Shown one piece after another: positions 2,843 through 52,631 of a stretch of 64,000 nucleotides of DNA. Position numbers and translations under genes: made by a program. The notes below the pieces were generated by a model that did not search any database, was not told the DNA's origin, and saw only the letters and a list, made by a program, of their open reading frames with translations. Origin of the DNA: Escherichia coli (GTDB lineage Bacteria; Pseudomonadota; Gammaproteobacteria; Enterobacterales; Enterobacteriaceae); assembly GCF_045037415.1 (NCBI RefSeq), contig NZ_CP173438.1; one strand, 5' to 3'. Numbering within the stretch: position 1 is the stretch's first letter; the number at the start of each line of letters is the position of its first letter.

Positions 2843-4117
2843 TTATTCACCAGATGCCTGTTGCGCTTCCGGCTTACCATAAATCAGCAACGGTTTGCTT
2901 TGACCATCAATTACCGACTCGTCGATAACCACTTTTTCGACATCTTCCATGGACGGCAGATCGTACATGGTATCGAGCAGTGCGGCTTCTACGATGGAAC
3001 GCAGGCCACGGGCACCGGTTTTACGCGCCATCGCTTTCTTAGCGATAGCATCCAGCGCCTCGTCACGGAATTCCAGATCCACGCCTTCCAGATTAAACAG
3101 CGCCTGATACTGCTTGGTCAGGGCGTTTTTCGGCTCTTTGAGGATCTGAATCAGAGCTTCTTCGCTCAGTTCATTCAACGTTGCGACAACCGGCAGACGA
3201 CCAATGAACTCAGGGATCAGACCAAACTTGATCAGATCTTCCGGTTCAACCTGCGCCAGCAGTTCACCTTCGCTGGCTTTGTCGGACTTGGCTTTCACCG
3301 TCGCGCCAAAACCAATGCCGGAGCCGGTTTCAACACGATTGGCAATCACTTTATCCAGGCCAGCAAATGCGCCGCCACAGATGAACAGGATCTTAGAGGT
3401 ATCAACCTGCAAGAATTCCTGCTGCGGATGTTTACGCCCACCTTGCGGCGGAACAGCAGCTACCGTACCTTCGATCAGTTTTAACAGTGCCTGCTGTACG
3501 CCTTCACCGGAAACGTCTCGGGTAATGGACGGGTTGTCTGACTTACGAGAAATCTTGTCGATTTCATCGATGTAGACAATCCCGCGCTGCGCTTTCTGTA
3601 CGTCGTAATCGCACTTCTGCAACAGCTTCTGAATGATGTTTTCAACGTCTTCGCCCACATAACCGGCTTCGGTCAGCGTGGTTGCGTCAGCCATGGTGAA
3701 CGGAACGTCCAGCAGGCGCGCCAGCGTTTCGGCCAGCAGCGTTTTACCGGAACCGGTCGGACCGATCAGCAGAATGTTACTTTTGCCCAACTCGACGCCA
3801 TTGCTGGTATCTCCGTTGCGCAGACGTTTGTAGTGGTTGTATACCGCGACCGCCAGCACTTTTTTCGCCTGTTCCTGACCGATAACGTAATCGTCCAGGT
3901 GGTTGCGAATTTCATGCGGCGTCGGTAGCGCACTGCGTTCACGATGCGGTGCAACTTCTTTAATCTCTTCGCGAATGATGTCGTTACATAAATCAACACA
4001 TTCGTCGCAGATATACACGGATGGACCGGCAATCAGCTTGCGCACTTCATGCTGGCTTTTGCCGCAAAAAGAGCAATACAGCAATTTGCCTGAGCCATCT
4101 TTGCGTTTATCTGTCAT
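2843..4117 (-). CDS. clpX: ATP-dependent Clp protease ATP-binding subunit ClpX
   Basis: 424 aa; N-terminal zinc-binding CSFCGK..CDEC; Walker A GPTGSGKT; matches ClpX. Confidence 0.95.
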
Positions 4118-9932: not shown

Positions 9933-10880
<948 letters not shown>

Positions 10881-10889
10881 AGGGGTTGA

Positions 10890-13826
<2,937 letters not shown>

Positions 13827-13837
13827 GAGCGGCGGTT

Positions 13838-14728
13838 ATGATATTTAAGCAATACCTGCAAGTAACGAAACCAGGCATCATCTTTGGCAACCTGATCTCG
13901 GTGATTGGGGGATTCTTGCTGGCCTCAAAGGGCAGCATTGATTATCCCCTGTTTATCTACACGCTGGTTGGGGTGTCACTGGTTGTGGCGTCGGGTTGTG
14001 TGTTTAACAACTACATCGACAGGGATATCGACAGAAAGATGGAAAGGACGAAGAATCGGGTGCTGGTTAAAGGCCTGATCTCTCCTGCTGTCTCGCTGGT
14101 GTACGCCACCTTGCTGGGTATTGCTGGCTTTATGCTGCTGTGGTTTGGCGCGAATCCGCTGGCCTGCTGGCTGGGGGTGATGGGCTTTGTGGTTTATGTC
14201 GGCGTTTATAGCCTGTACATGAAACGTCATTCTGTCTACGGCACATTGATTGGTTCGCTCTCCGGCGCTGCGCCTCCGGTGATCGGTTACTGTGCGGTAA
14301 CCGGCGAGTTCGATAGCGGCGCAGCGATCCTGTTGGCTATCTTCAGCCTGTGGCAGATGCCTCACTCTTATGCCATAGCCATTTTCCGCTTTAAGGATTA
14401 TCAGGCGGCAAACATTCCGGTACTGCCGGTGGTGAAAGGCATTTCGGTGGCGAAGAATCACATCACGCTGTATATCATCGCCTTTGCCGTTGCCACGCTG
14501 ATGCTCTCTCTTGGCGGCTACGCTGGGTATAAATATCTGGTGGTCGCCGCTGCGGTGAGCGTCTGGTGGTTAGGCATGGCTCTGCGCGGCTATAAAGTTG
14601 CTGATGACAGAATCTGGGCGCGCAAGCTGTTCGGTTTCTCTATCATCGCTATCACTGCCCTCTCGGTGATGATGTCCGTTGATTTTATGGTGCCGGACTC
14701 GCATACGCTGCTGGCTGCTGTGTGGTAA
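13838..14728 (+). CDS. cyoE: Heme O synthase (protoheme IX farnesyltransferase)
   Basis: ORF 13793..14728 trimmed to Met16 (296 aa) [22 protein letters not shown]; UbiA-family prenyltransferase motif NNYIDRDID. Confidence 0.9.
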
Positions 14729-23282: not shown

Positions 23283-24257
23283 ATGCAATACAACCCCTTA
23301 GGAAAAACCGACCTTCGCGTTTCCCGACTTTGCCTCGGATGTATGACCTTTGGCGAGCCAGATCGCGGTAATCACGCATGGACACTGCCGGAAGAGAGCA
23401 GCCGTCCCATCATTAAACGTGCGCTGGAAGGCGGCATAAATTTCTTTGATACCGCCAATAGCTATTCCGATGGCAGCAGCGAAGAGATCGTCGGTCGCGC
23501 ACTGCGGGATTTCGCCCGTCGTGAAGACGTGGTCGTTGCGACCAAAGTGTTCCATCGCGTTGGTGATTTACCTGAAGGATTATCCCGTGCACAAATTTTG
23601 CGCTCTATCGACGACAGCCTGCGCCGTCTCGGCATGGATTATGTCGATATCCTGCAAATTCATCGCTGGGATTACAACACGCCGATCGAAGAGACGCTGG
23701 AAGCCCTGAACGACGTGGTAAAAGTCGGGAAAGCGCGTTATATCGGCGCGTCATCCATGCACGCTTCGCAGTTTGCTCAAGCACTGGAACTACAAAAACA
23801 GCACGGCTGGGCGCAGTTTGTCAGTATGCAGGATCACTACAATCTGATTTATCGTGAAGAAGAGCGCGAGATGCTGCCGCTGTGTTATCAGGAAGGCGTG
23901 GCGGTGATTCCATGGAGCCCGCTGGCGCGGGGCCGTCTGACGCGTCCTTGGGGAGAAACCACCGCACGGCTGGTGTCGGATGAAGTGGGGAAAAATCTCT
24001 ACCAAGAAAGCGATGAAAATGACGCACAAATTGCAGAACGCTTAACGGGCGTCAGTGAAGAACTTGGTGCAACGCGAGCACAAGTTGCGCTGGCCTGGTT
24101 GTTGAGTAAACCGGGCATTGCCGCACCGATTATCGGAACTTCTCGGGAGGAACAGCTTGATGAACTGCTAAACGCGGTGGATATCACCTTGAAGCCGGAA
24201 CAAATCGCCGAGCTGGAAACGCCGTATAAACCGCATCCGGTCGTAGGATTTAAATAG
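23283..24257 (+). CDS. yajO: Aldo-keto reductase YajO
   Basis: 324 aa; AKR-family features; recognised YajO downstream of dxs. Confidence 0.85.
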   Translation: MQYNPLGKTDLRVSRLCLGCMTFGEPDRGNHAWTLPEESSRPIIKRALEGGINFFDTANSYSDGSSEEIVGRALRDFARREDVVVATKVFHRVGDLPEGLSRAQILRSIDDSLRRLGMDYVDILQIHRWDYNTPIEETLEALNDVVKVGKARYIGASSMHASQFAQALELQKQHGWAQFVSMQDHYNLIYREEEREMLPLCYQEGVAVIPWSPLARGRLTRPWGETTARLVSDEVGKNLYQESDENDAQIAERLTGVSEELGATRAQVALAWLLSKPGIAAPIIGTSREEQLDELLNAVDITLKPEQIAELETPYKPHPVVGFK

Positions 24258-26859: not shown

Positions 26860-27963
26860 TCATGCACCCACTAAATGCAGGCAAACATCCGGGCCTACAT
26901 GACGTATCTCTTTGAATTTAAATTGGGGAGCGTCGGCTAATTTCTCAAGCCCTGGCAGCGTGCATAATCCACGGGCGTCGTTGCCTAATAGTTTAGGTGC
27001 GATATAGACAATCAGCTCATCGACTAAACCCGCCTGTAGCAATGCGCCAGCGAGCGTTGGCCCCGCTTCCACCCAGATGCTGTTAATCTGCTGTTTACCC
27101 AGTTGCATCATTAGTACAACCAGATCCAGGTGACCTTTATGCTCTGGAATCAGCAAGGTACGCACCGTTTCCGGCCACTCACGAGAATCTTCCTGCGTAC
27201 GCGCGAACCAGGTTTCGCCGGGCTGCTGCACAATGCGATGTTCCGGCGTCACGCGATTTTGGCTATCAATCACAATACGTACTGGCTGACGGAGATTTTG
27301 TTGCGGGTAGAGCCCCTGAGTTTGTTCATCCAGTTCAGACCAACGCACTGTTAAGGCTGGATCATCCGCCAGCACCGTGGCGCTGCTGGTTAAAATGGCA
27401 TGACTTTGCGCGCGCAGTCGTTGTACGTCGCGTCGCGCCTGAGGCGAAGTGATCCACTGGCTTTCGCCACTCGCCATCGCCGTGCGACCATCAAGCGATG
27501 CGCCAAGTTTTAACTGAATATAAGGAAAGCCGGTGCGCATCCGCTTGAGAAAGCCTTTATTCAATTGCTCAGCTTCACTCATCATCAGCCCGTGGCTGAC
27601 GTCAATGCCAGCCTGTTGCAGACGGTAAAGTCCACGTCCAGCAACCTGCGGATTGGGGTCTTGCATTGCAGCAACCACGCGCGCCACGCCCGCAGCAATT
27701 AATGCATCACAACACGGTGGCGTACGACCATGATGGCTACAGGGTTCGAGTGTGACATACGCCGTTGCGCCTTTGGCTTTTTCGCCGGCCATGCGCAACG
27801 CGTGTACCTCGGCATGCGGTTCACCCGCTCGTTGATGGTAACCTTCACCGACAATTTCGCCATCTTTGACAATGACGCACCCGACATTCGGGTTGGGATG
27901 CGTGGTAAAACGTCCTCGTTGCGCCAGCTTTAGCGCCCGCGCCATGTAATACTCGTCCTGCAC
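26860..27963 (-). CDS. ribD: Bifunctional riboflavin biosynthesis deaminase/reductase RibD
   Basis: 367 aa; CMP/dCMP deaminase zinc motif [15 protein letters not shown]; C-terminal reductase domain. Confidence 0.9.
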
Positions 27964-36360: not shown

Positions 36361-36942
36361 ATGAATTTTTTAGCTCACCTGCATTTAGCCCATCTCGCGG
36401 AAAGCTCGCTTTCCGGCAATTTACTGGCTGATTTCGTACGCGGAAATCCTGAAGAAAGTTTTCCGCCCGACGTCGTGGCTGGCATTCATATGCATCGGCG
36501 AATCGACGTATTAACCGACAATCTGCCAGAAGTCCGCGAAGCGCGGGAGTGGTTTCGTAATGAAACGCGCCGTGTCGCGCCTATTACGCTGGATGTGATG
36601 TGGGATCACTTTCTGTCCCGCCACTGGTCGCAGCTGTCGCCCGATTTTCCGCTACAGGAATTTACCTGTTATGCCCGGGAGCAAGTGATGACTATTCTTC
36701 CAGACTCACCGCCACGCTTTATCAATCTGAACAACTACTTATGGTCAGAGCAGTGGTTGGTGCGCTATCGCGATATGGATTTCATCCAGAGCGTGTTAAA
36801 CGGCATGGCAAGCCGTCGCCCACGTCTGGATGCCCTGCGTGACTCCTGGTACGATTTAGACGCCCATTACGATGCTCTCGAAACCCGCTTCTGGCAGTTT
36901 TATCCGCGGATGATGGAGCAGGCGTCACGCAAGGCGTTATAA
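36361..36942 (+). CDS. acpH: Acyl carrier protein phosphodiesterase
   Basis: 193 aa [28 protein letters not shown]; recognised AcpH (yajB). Confidence 0.9.
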
Positions 36943-44326: not shown

Positions 44327-45529
44327 ATGCGCATCCTTCACACCTCAGACTGGCATCTCGGCCAGAACTTCTACAGTAAAAGCCGCGAAGCTGAACATCA
44401 GGCTTTTCTTGACTGGCTGCTGGAGACAGCACAAGCCCATCTGGTGGATGCGATTATTGTTGCCGGTGATGTTTTCGATACCGGCTCGCCGCCCAGTTAC
44501 GCCCGCACGTTATACAACCGTTTTGTTGTCAATTTACAGCAAACTGGCTGTCATCTGGTGGTACTGGCAGGAAACCATGACTCGGTCGCCACGCTGAATG
44601 AATCGCGCGATATCATGGCGTTCCTCAATACTACCGTGGTCGCCAGCGCCGGACATGCGCCGCAAATATTGCCCCGTCGCGACGGGACGCCAGGCGCAGT
44701 GCTGTGTCCCATACCTTTTTTACGCCCGCGTGACATTATTACCAGCCAGGCGGGGCTTAACGGTATTGAAAAACAGCAGCATTTGCTGGCGGCTATTACT
44801 GATTATTATCAACAACATTATGCCGATGCCTGCAAACTGCGCGGCGATCAGCCTCTGCCCATCATCGCCACTGGACATTTAACGACCGTGGGTGCCAGTA
44901 AAAGTGACGCCGTGCGTGACATTTATATTGGCACGCTGGACGCGTTTCCGGCACAAAACTTTCCACCAGCCGACTACATCGCGCTCGGGCATATTCACCG
45001 CGCGCAGCTTATTGGCGGCATGGAACATGTTCGCTATTGCGGCTCCCCCATTCCACTGAGTTTTGATGAATGCGGTAAGAGTAAATATGTCCATCTGGTG
45101 ACATTTTCAAACGGCAAATTAGAGAGCGTGGAAAACCTGAACGTACCGGTAACGCAACCCATGGCGGTGCTGAAAGGCGATCTGGCGTCGATTACCGCAC
45201 AGCTGGAACAGTGGCGCGATGTATCACAGGAGCCGCCTGTCTGGCTGGATATCGAAATCACTACTGATGAGTATCTGCATGATATTCAGCGCAAAATCCA
45301 GGCATTAACCGAATCATTGCCTGTCGAAGTATTGCTGGTACGCCGGAGTCGTGAACAGCGCGAGCGTGTGTTAGCCAGCCAACAGCGTGAAACCCTCAGC
45401 GAACTCAGCGTCGAAGAGGTGTTCAATCGCCGTCTGGCACTGGAAGAACTGGATGAATCACAGCAGCAACGTCTGCAGCATCTTTTCGCCACGACGTTGC
45501 ATAGCCTCGCCGGAGAACACGAAGCATGA
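44327..45529 (+). CDS. sbcD: Nuclease SbcCD subunit D (Mre11-like phosphoesterase)
   Basis: ORF 44285..45529 trimmed to Met15 (400 aa) [13 protein letters not shown]; phosphoesterase motifs GDVFD, GNHD. Confidence 0.9.
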
Positions 45530-48500
45530 AAATTCTCAGCCTGCGCCTGAAAAACCTGAACTCATTAAAAGGCGAATGGAAGATTGATTTCACCCGCGAG
45601 CCGTTCGCCAGCAACGGGCTGTTTGCTATTACCGGCCCAACCGGTGCGGGGAAAACCACCCTGCTGGACGCCATTTGTCTGGCGCTGTATCACGAAACTC
45701 CGCGCCTCTCTAACGTTTCACAATCGCAAAATGATCTCATGACCCGCGATACCGCCGAATGTCTGGCGGAAGTGGAGTTTGAAGTCAAAGATGAAGCGTA
45801 TCGCGCGTTCTGGAGCCAGAATCGGGCGCGTAACCAGCCGGACGGTAATTTGCAGGTGCCACGCGTAGAGCTGGCGCGCTGTGCAGACGGCAAAATTCTC
45901 GCCGACAAAGTGAAAGATAAGCTGGAACTGACGGCGACGTTAACCGGACTGGATTACGGGCGCTTCACCCGTTCGATGCTGCTTTCGCAGGGGCAATTTG
46001 CTGCCTTCCTGAATGCCAAACCCAAAGAACGCGCAGAATTGCTCGAGGAGTTAACCGGCACTGAAATCTACGGGCAAATCTCGGCGATGGTTTTTGAGCA
46101 GCACAAATCGGCCCGCACAGAGCTGGAGAAGCTGCAAGCGCAGGCCAGCGGCGTCGCGTTGCTCACGCCGGAACAAGTGCAATCGCTGACAGCGAGTTTG
46201 CAGGTACTTACTGACGAAGAAAAACAGTTAATTACCGCGCAGCAGCAAGAACAACAATCGCTAAACTGGTTAACGCGTCTGGACGAATTGCAGCAAGAAG
46301 CCAGCCGCCGTCAACAGGCCTTGCAACAGGCATTAGCCGAAGAAGAACAAGCGCAACCTCAACTGGCGGCGCTCAGTCTGGCACAACCGGCACGAAATCT
46401 TCGTCCGCACTGGGAACGCATCGCAGAACACAGCACGGCGCTGGCGCATACTCGCCAGCAGATTGAAGAAGTAAATACTCGCTTACAGAGCACAATGGCG
46501 CTTCGTGCGAGCATTCGCCACCACGCGGCGAAGCAGTCAGCAGAATTACAGCAGCAGCAACAAAGCCTGAATGCCTGGTTACAGGAACACGACCGCTTCC
46601 GTCAGTGGAACAACGAACTGGCGGGTTGGCGTGCGCAGTTCTCCCAACAAACCAGCGATCGCGAGCATCTGCGGCAATGGCAGCAACAGTTAACCCATGC
46701 TGAGCAAAAACTTAATGCGCTTGCGGCGATCACGTTGACGTTAACCGCCGATGAAGTTGCTAGCGCCCAGGCGCAACATGCTGAGCAACGCCCACTGCGT
46801 CAGCGCCTGGTCGCACTGCATGGGCAGATTGTTCCCCAACAAAAACGTCTGGCGCAGTTACAGGTCGCTATCCAGAACGTCACTCTGGAGCAGACGCAAC
46901 GTAATGCCGCACTTAACAAAATGCGCCATCGTTATAAAGAAAAGATGCAACAACTTGCCGATGTGAAAACCATTTGCGAGCAGGAAGCGCGCATTAAAAC
47001 GCTGGAAGCCCAGCGCGCACAGTTACAGGCGGGTCAGCCTTGCCCACTTTGTGGTTCCACCAGCCACCCGGCGGTCGAGGCGTATCAGGCGCTGGAACCG
47101 GGCGTTAATCAGGCCCGGCTATTAACGCTGGAAAAAGAAGTGAAAAAGCTCGGCGAAGAAGGTGCGACGCTACGTGGGCAACTGGACGCCTTAACAAAGC
47201 AACTTCAGCGCGATGAAAACGAAGCGCAAAGCCTCCGACAAGATGAGCAAGCACTTACTCAACAATGGCAAGCCGTCACGGCCAGCCTCAATATCACCCT
47301 GCAGCCACAGGACGATATTCAACCGTGGCTGGATGCACAAGATGAGCACGAACGCCAGCTGCGGTTACTCAGCCAACGGCATGAATTACAAGGGCAGATT
47401 GCCGCGCATAATCAGCAAATTATCCAGTATCAACAGCAAATTGAACAACGCCAGCAGCAGCTCTTAACGGCATTGGCGGGTTATGCACTGACATTGCCAC
47501 AGGAAGATGAAGAAGAGAGCTGGTTGGCGACGCGTCAGCAAGAAGCGCAGAGCTGGCAGCAACGCCAGAACGAATTAACCGCGCTGCAAAACCGTATGCA
47601 GCAGCTGACGCCGATTCTGGAAACGTTGCCGCAAAGTGATGAACTCCCGCACAGCGAAGAAACTGTGGCGCTGGAAAACTGGCGGCAGGTTCATGAACAA
47701 TGTCTCGCATTACACAGCCAGCAGCAGACGTTACAGCAACAGGATGTTCTGGCGGCGCAAAGTCTGCAAAAAGCCCAGGCGCAGTTTGACACCGCGCTAC
47801 AGGCGAGCGTCTTTGACGATCAGCAGGCGTTCCTTGCGGCGCTAATGGATGAACAAACACTAACGCAGCTGGAACAGCTCAAGCAGAATCTGGAAAACCA
47901 GCGCCGTCAGGCGCAAACGCTGGTCACTCAGACAGCAGAAACGCTGACACAGCATCAGCAACACCGACCTGGCGGGTTGTCTCTCACTGTGACGGTGGAG
48001 CAGATTCAGCAAGAGTTAGCGCAAACTCACCAAAAGTTGCGTGAAAACACCACGAGTCAAGGCGAGATTCGCCAGCAGCTGAAGCAGGATGCAGATAACC
48101 GTCAGCAACAACAAACCTTAATGCAGCAAATTGCTCAAATGACGCAGCAGGTTGAGGACTGGGGATATCTGAATTCGCTAATAGGTTCCAAAGAGGGCGA
48201 TAAATTCCGCAAATTTGCCCAAGGGCTGACGCTGGATAATTTAGTCCATCTCGCTAATCAGCAACTTACCCGGCTGCACGGGCGCTATCTGTTACAGCGC
48301 AAAGCCAGCGAGGCGCTGGAAGTTGAGGTTGTTGATACCTGGCAGGCTGATGCGGTACGCGATACCCGTACCCTTTCCGGCGGCGAAAGTTTCCTCGTCA
48401 GTCTGGCGCTGGCACTGGCGCTTTCAGATCTGGTCAGCCATAAAACGCGTATTGACTCGCTGTTCCTTGATGAAGGTTTTGGCACGCTGGATAGCGAAAC

Positions 48501-48669
48501 GCTGGATACCGCCCTTGATGCGTTGGATGCCCTGAATGCCAGTGGCAAAACCATCGGGGTGATTAGCCACGTTGAAGCGATGAAAGAGCGTATTCCGGTG
48601 CAGATCAAAGTGAAGAAGATCAATGGACTGGGCTACAGCAAACTGGAAAGTGCGTTTGCAGTGAAATAA
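45526..48669 (+). CDS. sbcC: Nuclease SbcCD subunit C (Rad50-like SMC ATPase)
   Basis: 1047 aa; Walker [10 protein letters not shown]; long Q-rich coiled coil with central CxxC hook (CPLCGS); C-terminal signature [17 protein letters not shown] and Walker [12 protein letters not shown]; ATG overlaps sbcD stop (ATGA). Confidence 0.95.
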
Positions 48670-49979: not shown

Positions 49980-50006
49980 ATTGCAGTCACGGTGCACGTT
50001 GCTTAT

Positions 50007-50223
50007 TGCCGGATGCGGCGTGAACGCCTTATCCGGCCTACGGGACTGTTCATTTTGTAGGCCTGATAAGACACGCCAGTGTCGCATCAGGCATCGGAGC
50101 ACCGGGGGGTTGCCGCCACTGTGCGCGTTATTTGTTGCCGGATGCGGCGCGAGCGCCTTATCCGGCCTACCGGACGGCTCACTTTGTAGGCCTGATAAGA
50201 CGCGGCAAGCGTCGCATCAGGCA
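50007..50223. repeat. BIME cluster: four REP elements in two tandem REP pairs between araJ and mak
   Basis: TGCCGGATGCGGCG(T/C)GA(A/G)CGCCTTATCCGGCCTAC occurs twice and GTAGGCCTGATAAGAC(A/G)CG..GTCGCATCAGGCA occurs twice in alternating order. Confidence 0.9.
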
Positions 50224-50247
50224 TGATACGCCAATTGCCTGGGTTTT

Positions 50248-51156
50248 TTACTCTTGTGGCCATAACCATGCAGCGCCGCGTACGCCGCTCGAATCACCAT
50301 GTTTCGCCTTGTGTACCGGCGTTTCACATTCTCCGCCGAAGACAAATTGTTTAATCAACTGCGGAACCGTTTGATATAAACGGTCTACATTGCTCATTCC
50401 GCCGCCCAGGACAATCACATCCGGATCGAGAATATTCACGACATGTGCCAGCGATTTTGCCAGCCGCAGCTCGTAGCGACGCAATGCCAGTTCCGCTACC
50501 GGATCGCTTTCTTCAACCAGGCGGATAATTTCACTGCCTTTCAGCGCATGTCCGCTCAAACGACGATAATCCGTCGCGAATCCCGTGCCTGAAATAAAGG
50601 TTTCAATACAACCTTGTTTACCGCAATAACAAGGGACTTCCTCGCGATAACGCAGTTCGTCTTCGTCCATCCACGGTAGCGGATTGTGTCCCCACTCGCC
50701 TGCCGTGCCATTGCCGCCGATATGCGCCCGCCCATTGAATGCCACGCCCGCGCCGCATCCCGTGCCGATAATCACGGCAAAAACCGTCTGCGCTCCCGCT
50801 GCCGCGCCATCTACCGCTTCTGAAACCGCCAGACAGTTGGCGTCATTTGCCAGCCGCACTTCCCGCTGCAACCGCGCGCTTAAGTCTTTATCGAATGGCT
50901 GACCGTTGAGCCAGGTTGAATTGGCATTCTTCACCACGCCGGTGTAGGGCGAAATCGAACCTGGAATGCCCATACCTACCGTTCCGCGCTGCCCTGTTGC
51001 CTGCTCCGCCATATCAACCAACGTGGCGATCGTTTCAATAGTCTGCCGGTAATCATCACGCGGCGTGGGCAGACGATGGCGGTACAACTGCTCCCCTGCA
51101 TCGCCCAATGCAATCACTTCAGTTTTGGTGCCGCCTAAATCGATACCTATACGCAC
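50248..51156 (-). CDS. mak: Fructokinase / manno(fructo)kinase Mak (ROK family)
   Basis: ORF 50248..51294 trimmed to GTG at codon 47 (302 aa) (V/M)[15 protein letters not shown]; AAGGAG SD upstream; ROK zinc motif CYCGKQGC. Confidence 0.85.
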
Positions 51157-52247: not shown

Positions 52248-52349
52248 CGAAGCCACACCAGGAATATAATCGTTAGCTACAGCGGGCAATAATTCTTAGC
52301 GCAGCAATATTATGCGTTTTATGCTGTAACTTGCTCCAGGGGCGTTGTG

Positions 52350-52631
52350 TCATTGTTTTTCCTCAAGCCGGTGACGCGCTTCACTGCGAATTTTTCGCGT
52401 TGCCCCGGTTTTCACTAAATCACGTAACAGCGAAAGATCGGGTTGTTCGACAAATAAGAGTAATGATGGATCCTCTTTTAACCACGCCGTTTTCACATCG
52501 GCAGCCAGCTGTGAATTATTAATAGCCAGCGACCGCTCCTGAGGCTCAGTCAATGTCGTTAACAACAACACCGGGGTATGTGCGTTGTGCAATGCCGTTT
52601 GGCGCAAATGATCATTGCGACTTTGCAGCAA
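52350..52631 (-). CDS. Hypothetical small protein (possibly the ykiA locus); start and true extent uncertain
   Basis: 93-codon ORF (..LLLFVEQPDLSLLRDLVKTGATRKIRSEARHRLEEKQ) in the rdgC-ppnP gap where K-12 carries ykiA as I recall; begins at a non-ATG (TTG) codon and has no internal Met. Confidence 0.4.
   Translation of the reverse strand: MLQSRNDHLRQTALHNAHTPVLLLTTLTEPQERSLAINNSQLAADVKTAWLKEDPSLLLFVEQPDLSLLRDLVKTGATRKIRSEARHRLEEKQ

Follow-up and report, generated by a model that had tools for sequence, protein, structure and literature searches.

The cyoE gene described here is found in a 64,000-nucleotide stretch of Escherichia coli DNA (the window; positions are numbered from its first base). 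It is the last gene of the cytochrome bo3 operon cyoABCDE, the genomic context expected of a heme O synthase gene. The features of the operon and of the cyoD-cyoE junction are as follows.

9933–14728, plus strand: cyoABCDE operon, in which the variant lies, with cyoE last
9933–10880, plus strand: cyoA
10902–12893, plus strand: cyoB
12883–13497, plus strand: cyoC
13497–13826, plus strand: cyoD, encoding subunit IV of cytochrome bo3; the N-terminal allele MSHSNASS co-occurs with Ile2 of CyoE in six of the six carriers examined
13824–13837, plus strand: cyoD stop codon TAA and the 11-nt cyoD-cyoE spacer, GAGCGGCGGTT; 24 outgroup species have the same first 7 spacer bases
13838–14728, plus strand: cyoE, heme O synthase (protoheme IX farnesyltransferase), 296 aa; exact-match strains have the identical protein annotated as RefSeq WP_000576425.1
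13838–13840, plus strand: cyoE start codon ATG, which is the RefSeq CDS start in Ile2 strains; the NCBIfam profile is aligned from residue 1
13843, plus strand: polymorphic base, A in the window and G in MG1655, CFT073 and 25 of 25 outgroup species

The window CyoE scored 535.2 bits against NF003348, the NCBIfam heme o synthase equivalog (cut-off 285), with residues 1 to 292 of the protein aligned to positions 1 to 292 of the profile. It scored 305.4 bits against TIGR01473 (cut-off 210.3). The first Asp-rich motif of UbiA-type prenyltransferases, N-x-x-x-D-x-x-x-D, is found at approximately residues 57 to 66. A search of PDB sequences for a CyoE relative gave no match at E ≤ 0.001. CyoE of K-12 MG1655 (b0428, NP_414962.1; 446815–447705, minus strand) has the same place in the operon after cyoD, is also 296 aa long and shares 295 of 296 residues with the window protein; residue 2 is Met in MG1655 and Ile in the window. 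From this identity to the K-12 enzyme we infer that the window CyoE would farnesylate protoheme IX to heme O. There is no protein-level difference between the window CyoE and the RefSeq heme o synthase WP_000576425.1. In strain SK1144, a 1.2-kb stretch with cyoE is 100% identical to the window and its CDS, annotated from the same ATG, encodes WP_000576425.1. The same protein record is annotated in APEC O1, 536, DCE7, FDAARGOS_1253 and 2022H047.

The nine bases at 13838 to 13846 are ATG ATA TTT, followed by AAG, and cyoE of the window begins with Met-Ile-Phe-Lys as the initial annotation had read it. The matching nine bases in MG1655 (NC_000913.3) are ATG ATG TTT, which bears out the Met-Met-Phe-Lys start that the same annotation had given for K-12. 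These codons are not an exact match in the two genes, as one base differs. This base, 13843, ends codon 2 of cyoE, where one G to A transition changes ATG to ATA (Met2Ile); the A corresponds to G at MG1655 447700 in the coding-strand reading. The nearest flanking differences between the window and MG1655 are at 13775 (68 nt upstream) and 13916 (73 nt downstream). Over the entire cyoE gene the two sequences differ at 25 nucleotides; 24 of these changes are synonymous, and M2I is the sole amino acid change. The Ile2 allele keeps one AUG where most E. coli have an AUG-AUG tandem. ATA accounts for 48 of the 1,163 Ile codons in the window's genes (2.6 per 1000 codons), and cyoE is the only one of 60 window genes with ATA as its second codon.

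CFT073 (phylogroup B2, ST73) differs from the window by 8 nucleotides in cyoE and keeps ATG ATG (CyoE, WP_000971336.1). The N-terminus of its CyoD reads NVSG, in contrast to NASS in the window. Codons 5 to 8 of cyoD (13509–13520) form a small hypervariable patch: TDHS in K-12, NASS in the window and in the examined Ile2 carriers, and NVSG in CFT073. In the patch, three residues in a row are unlike those of K-12, while the protein is conserved elsewhere. In the Ile2 carrier FDAARGOS_1253 (stretch L031, 8604–12053), yajR is followed by genes for SEL1-like repeat and tetratricopeptide repeat proteins and not by yajQ-panE-yajL. This arrangement beside the cyo operon is a strain-specific insertion or replacement.

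The whole window was aligned to MG1655 NC_000913.3 (395,000–475,000) with its annotation. It is collinear with MG1655 397,300–461,542, reverse-complemented, from lon to yaiW. Of 63,973 aligned positions, 1,454 are SNPs (97.73% identity). These comprise 1,087 transitions and 367 transversions and are spread over all 2-kb bins with 12 to 71 per bin. Among 60 CDSs of equal length, 1,032 codon differences are synonymous and 107 non-synonymous. M2I is thus not statistically special, being one of the 1,454 SNPs and one of the 107 non-synonymous codon differences. The few differences over tens of kb that would mark a K-12-like strain were not found; besides the SNPs, there are insertions of 137 and 123 bp present in MG1655 only. 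The initial annotation had proposed a strain close to, but not identical with, MG1655. The DNA is indeed from E. coli and not from MG1655, but at this level of divergence it is not close. The single-residue differences it had proposed for two other proteins held up, with YajL carrying L140Q and PhoA differing from MG1655 at two residues rather than one (L291Q and E381D).

Several other differences from K-12 were observed in the alignment. In the yajO-dxs spacer (junction 23266/23267) the window is without a 123-bp element found at MG1655 438153–438275, which we take from its sequence to resemble an ERIC/IRU intergenic repeat. In the yajD-tsx spacer (junction 30321/30322) it is without a 137-bp stretch of MG1655 (430959–431095) that contains REP-like palindromes (GCCTGATGCG...CAGGC and GCCGGA...CATCCGGC). 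The mak-araJ spacer (50002–50224) is repeat-rich and aligns poorly; it carries a 29-bp insertion, CGGGGGGTTGCCGCCACTGTGCGCGTTAT, at 50103–50131 that is found in the window only. Parts of the window between 39001 and 64000 are found again at 24 sites (median) in each E. coli genome, which is consistent with REP/BIME-type elements. ykiD (52270–52353, minus strand) is far more divergent than its neighbours, with 89% identity to K-12 and 5 non-synonymous differences in 28 codons, and its stop codon comes one codon earlier in the window than in K-12 (E27*). sbcC (45526–48669, plus strand) has an in-frame 3-bp deletion near 47971 relative to MG1655 (1,047 vs 1,048 aa) and its frame is intact. The genes most divergent from K-12 are acpH (36361–36942, 94.7%), yajO (23283–24257, 94.7%) and ribD (26860–27963, 95.6%), compared with 97.7% overall; their divergence may mark old recombination tracts. 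MalZ differs from K-12 by 15 amino acids, ClpX (2843–4117, minus strand) has the adjacent substitutions S259A and H260N, and Mak (50248–51156, minus strand) has G265P, which involves two nucleotide changes in one codon.

The lineage of the window was assigned by its matches to complete genomes. Positions 1–25000 and 39001–64000 (50 of the 64 kb) are 100% identical to O25b:H4-ST131 genomes, including EC958, JJ2434, uk_P46212, 81009, H105, a record named 'O25b:H4' and many others. Approximately 1,040 of 5,424 E. coli genomes are at least 99% identical to the window, and approximately 4,380 of the 5,424, K-12 included, fall in the band of 95 to 99%. Judged by these long matches to reference ST131 genomes, the source is an O25b:H4-ST131-type strain, of a pathogenic lineage in phylogroup B2. 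The ST131 assignment is made from best matches only, because none of the seven MLST loci (adk, fumC, gyrB, icd, mdh, purA and recA) and none of the Clermont phylogroup markers is among the genes that were mapped here. Phylogroup B2 is one of the lineages of E. coli farthest from K-12, which belongs to phylogroup A. With an ST131/B2-type source, the other differences from the reference seen in the window would be normal divergence between phylogroups.

The frequency of the allele was determined in 5,426 complete E. coli genomes by megablast with 53-nt queries that had the SNP in the middle and 26 nt to either side. Since megablast needs a 28-nt exact word, a query that mismatches at the SNP gives no match at all. 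The ATA (Ile2) query found 796 genomes and the ATG (Met2) query 4,628; the sum, 5,424, equals all genomes with cyoE. Ile2 thus has a share of 14.7% among complete E. coli genomes. The carriers include APEC O1, 536, F11 and strains labelled ST131. A cyoD-cyoE match was absent from 2 of the 5,426 genomes, and one copy of cyoE is on a record classed as plasmid. M2I is a standing polymorphism that can be seen in public genomes.

The polarity of the change was examined by scanning species-representative genomes for the conserved CyoE N-terminus with codon 2 left free. Twenty-five species were returned, among them Escherichia whittamii, two or three other Escherichia species, Salmonella enterica subsp. 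arizonae and diarizonae, many Citrobacter, Pseudescherichia, Intestinirhabdus and others. Each of the 25 species carries ATG ATG, in a sample that is dominated by Citrobacter, phylogenetically unbalanced and chosen by a conserved N-terminal peptide. Since all 25 outgroups have ATG, Met2 is the ancestral state and Ile2 the derived one. Over 45 kb, CFT073 matches the window at 99.3% identity and yet has Met2. As CFT073 belongs to B2, the mutation originated inside B2 and has not reached fixation in it.

Six Ile2 carriers (the window, APEC O1, 536, DCE7, FDAARGOS_1253 and 2022H047) were compared over 1,232 nt of cyoD-cyoE. They differ among themselves at 0 to 9 positions, by synonymous changes, from CFT073 at 14 to 19 nt and from MG1655 at 37 to 41 nt. 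All six match a single protein record for CyoE and a single one for CyoD. The exact 91-nt haplotype of the window is found in 546 of the 796 Ile2 genomes. This count first suggested multiple origins, which were set aside when the six carriers proved to be one closely related haplotype family. Only 546 exact matches were found because other carriers differ at nearby sites. Position 13784 is C in the window and T in the other five carriers compared, and DCE7, FDAARGOS_1253 and 2022H047 differ from the window at 13763. A single origin followed by ordinary diversification would be the simplest reading of the six haplotypes. A non-B2 background was considered for three carriers that stood out, one isolated from a pig lung and two with small genomes. 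It was rejected, as all three are B2-like by identity (99.2 to 99.4% to the window, 98.0 to 98.1% to MG1655). One G to A transition would have occurred, most likely once, in the ancestor of a large sub-group of phylogroup B2 that includes ST131-like strains, APEC O1 and 536 and not CFT073. The window would have Ile2 because its source is an O25b:H4-ST131-type strain, approximately 2.3% from K-12 across the window.

We examined the cyoE start region for an effect on translation. A putative Shine-Dalgarno-like AAGAG/GAG overlaps the cyoD stop codon ahead of cyoE. This element, the 11-nt spacer and the start codon are unchanged between the two alleles, and translation would start at the same first AUG in both. 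Removal of the initiator Met by methionine aminopeptidase is blocked by a bulky Met or Ile at position 2. As both residues are bulky, the initiator Met should stay in both forms, and the mature N-termini should differ by one side chain. Residue 2 comes before the first predicted membrane segment, some 55 residues upstream of the Asp-rich motif; it would thus precede the first transmembrane helix and be far from the catalytic motif. mRNA folding was modelled for both alleles from −30 to +42 around the start. Neither allele folds better than shuffled sequence (z = −0.13 and +0.57), and the ensemble energies are −12.0 and −12.8 kcal/mol, a difference of less than 1 kcal/mol. Since folding of the start region is weak and alike in both alleles, no structural mechanism is supported.

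Diversity at third codon positions was calculated from 24 outgroup species and the window. It is 0.030 for cyoE codons 1 to 10 and 0.071 for codons 11 to 20, with a mean of 0.247 over the first 200 codons. Two other 10-codon blocks of cyoE, codons 51 to 60 and 91 to 100, are also low (0.062 and 0.101), and the constraint signal is therefore not confined to the start of the gene. The synonymous sites of 13838–13900 are nearly frozen in Escherichia, Salmonella, Citrobacter and their relatives, and the spacer bases 13827–13833 are invariant. These data suggest nucleotide-level constraint on the cyoE initiation region, and cyoD-cyoE coupling is perhaps its cause.

Other explanations of the ATA codon were weighed against an ordinary polymorphism. 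A sequencing or assembly error has in its favour that a single base is involved, and nothing else. This base is shared by 796 complete genomes, each assembled independently, and many of them are identical to the window over the 25 kb around it. Because the exact allele occurs in so many independent genomes, an error at 13843 was rejected and is given practically no weight. A near-MG1655 source, in which M2I would be one of a handful of strain-level differences, agrees with the fully collinear gene order and with the fact that most proteins differ by zero to few residues. This origin was rejected by the whole-window alignment, in which every 2-kb bin carries SNPs; in addition, the 100% identity is to ST131 genomes instead, and K-12 derivatives have ATG, with just 96.7% identity to the 91-nt haplotype that spans the site. 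We consider such an origin extremely unlikely.

Loss of the AUG tandem together with a rare A/U-rich AUA at the second codon could alter cyoE translation initiation and hence the heme O supply for cytochrome bo3 in the B2 lineages carrying the allele. In support of such an effect, the start of cyoE is under strong nucleotide-level constraint across genera, the tandem is kept in all 25 outgroups, and ATA is rare in the window and the second codon of this gene alone. Against it, the allele is stable in 796 complete genomes of successful lineages, local mRNA folding is weak and does not distinguish the alleles, and low diversity is found elsewhere in cyoE too. The outgroup sample is Citrobacter-heavy and was picked by the conserved N-terminal peptide, and a search of the available literature found no mention of cyoE M2I. 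A modest change in initiation is conceivable. It is regarded as improbable, though less so than a sequencing error or a near-MG1655 source. We are confident that M2I is an ordinary, catalogued cyoE polymorphism that would have arisen by a single transition in B2, reached the window through its ST131-type source and be neutral or nearly so. The effect of M2I itself we infer to be none or nearly none.

The biological weight of the variant is very small, as it is one conservative substitution among about a hundred amino acid differences between the window and K-12, and a protein record with Ile2 is already in RefSeq and present in hundreds of genomes. If the translation effect were true, CyoE synthesis would be retuned and the heme O supply altered in a major sub-group of the extra-intestinal pathogenic B2 lineages. 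On the preferred reading of an ordinary polymorphism, Ile2 and the 2.3% divergence together serve as a provenance marker, which points to an ST131/B2-type strain and not to a laboratory K-12 derivative. The allele also shows that natural strains can do without the second AUG of the conserved cyoE AUG-AUG tandem, in agreement with the annotated start at the first AUG.
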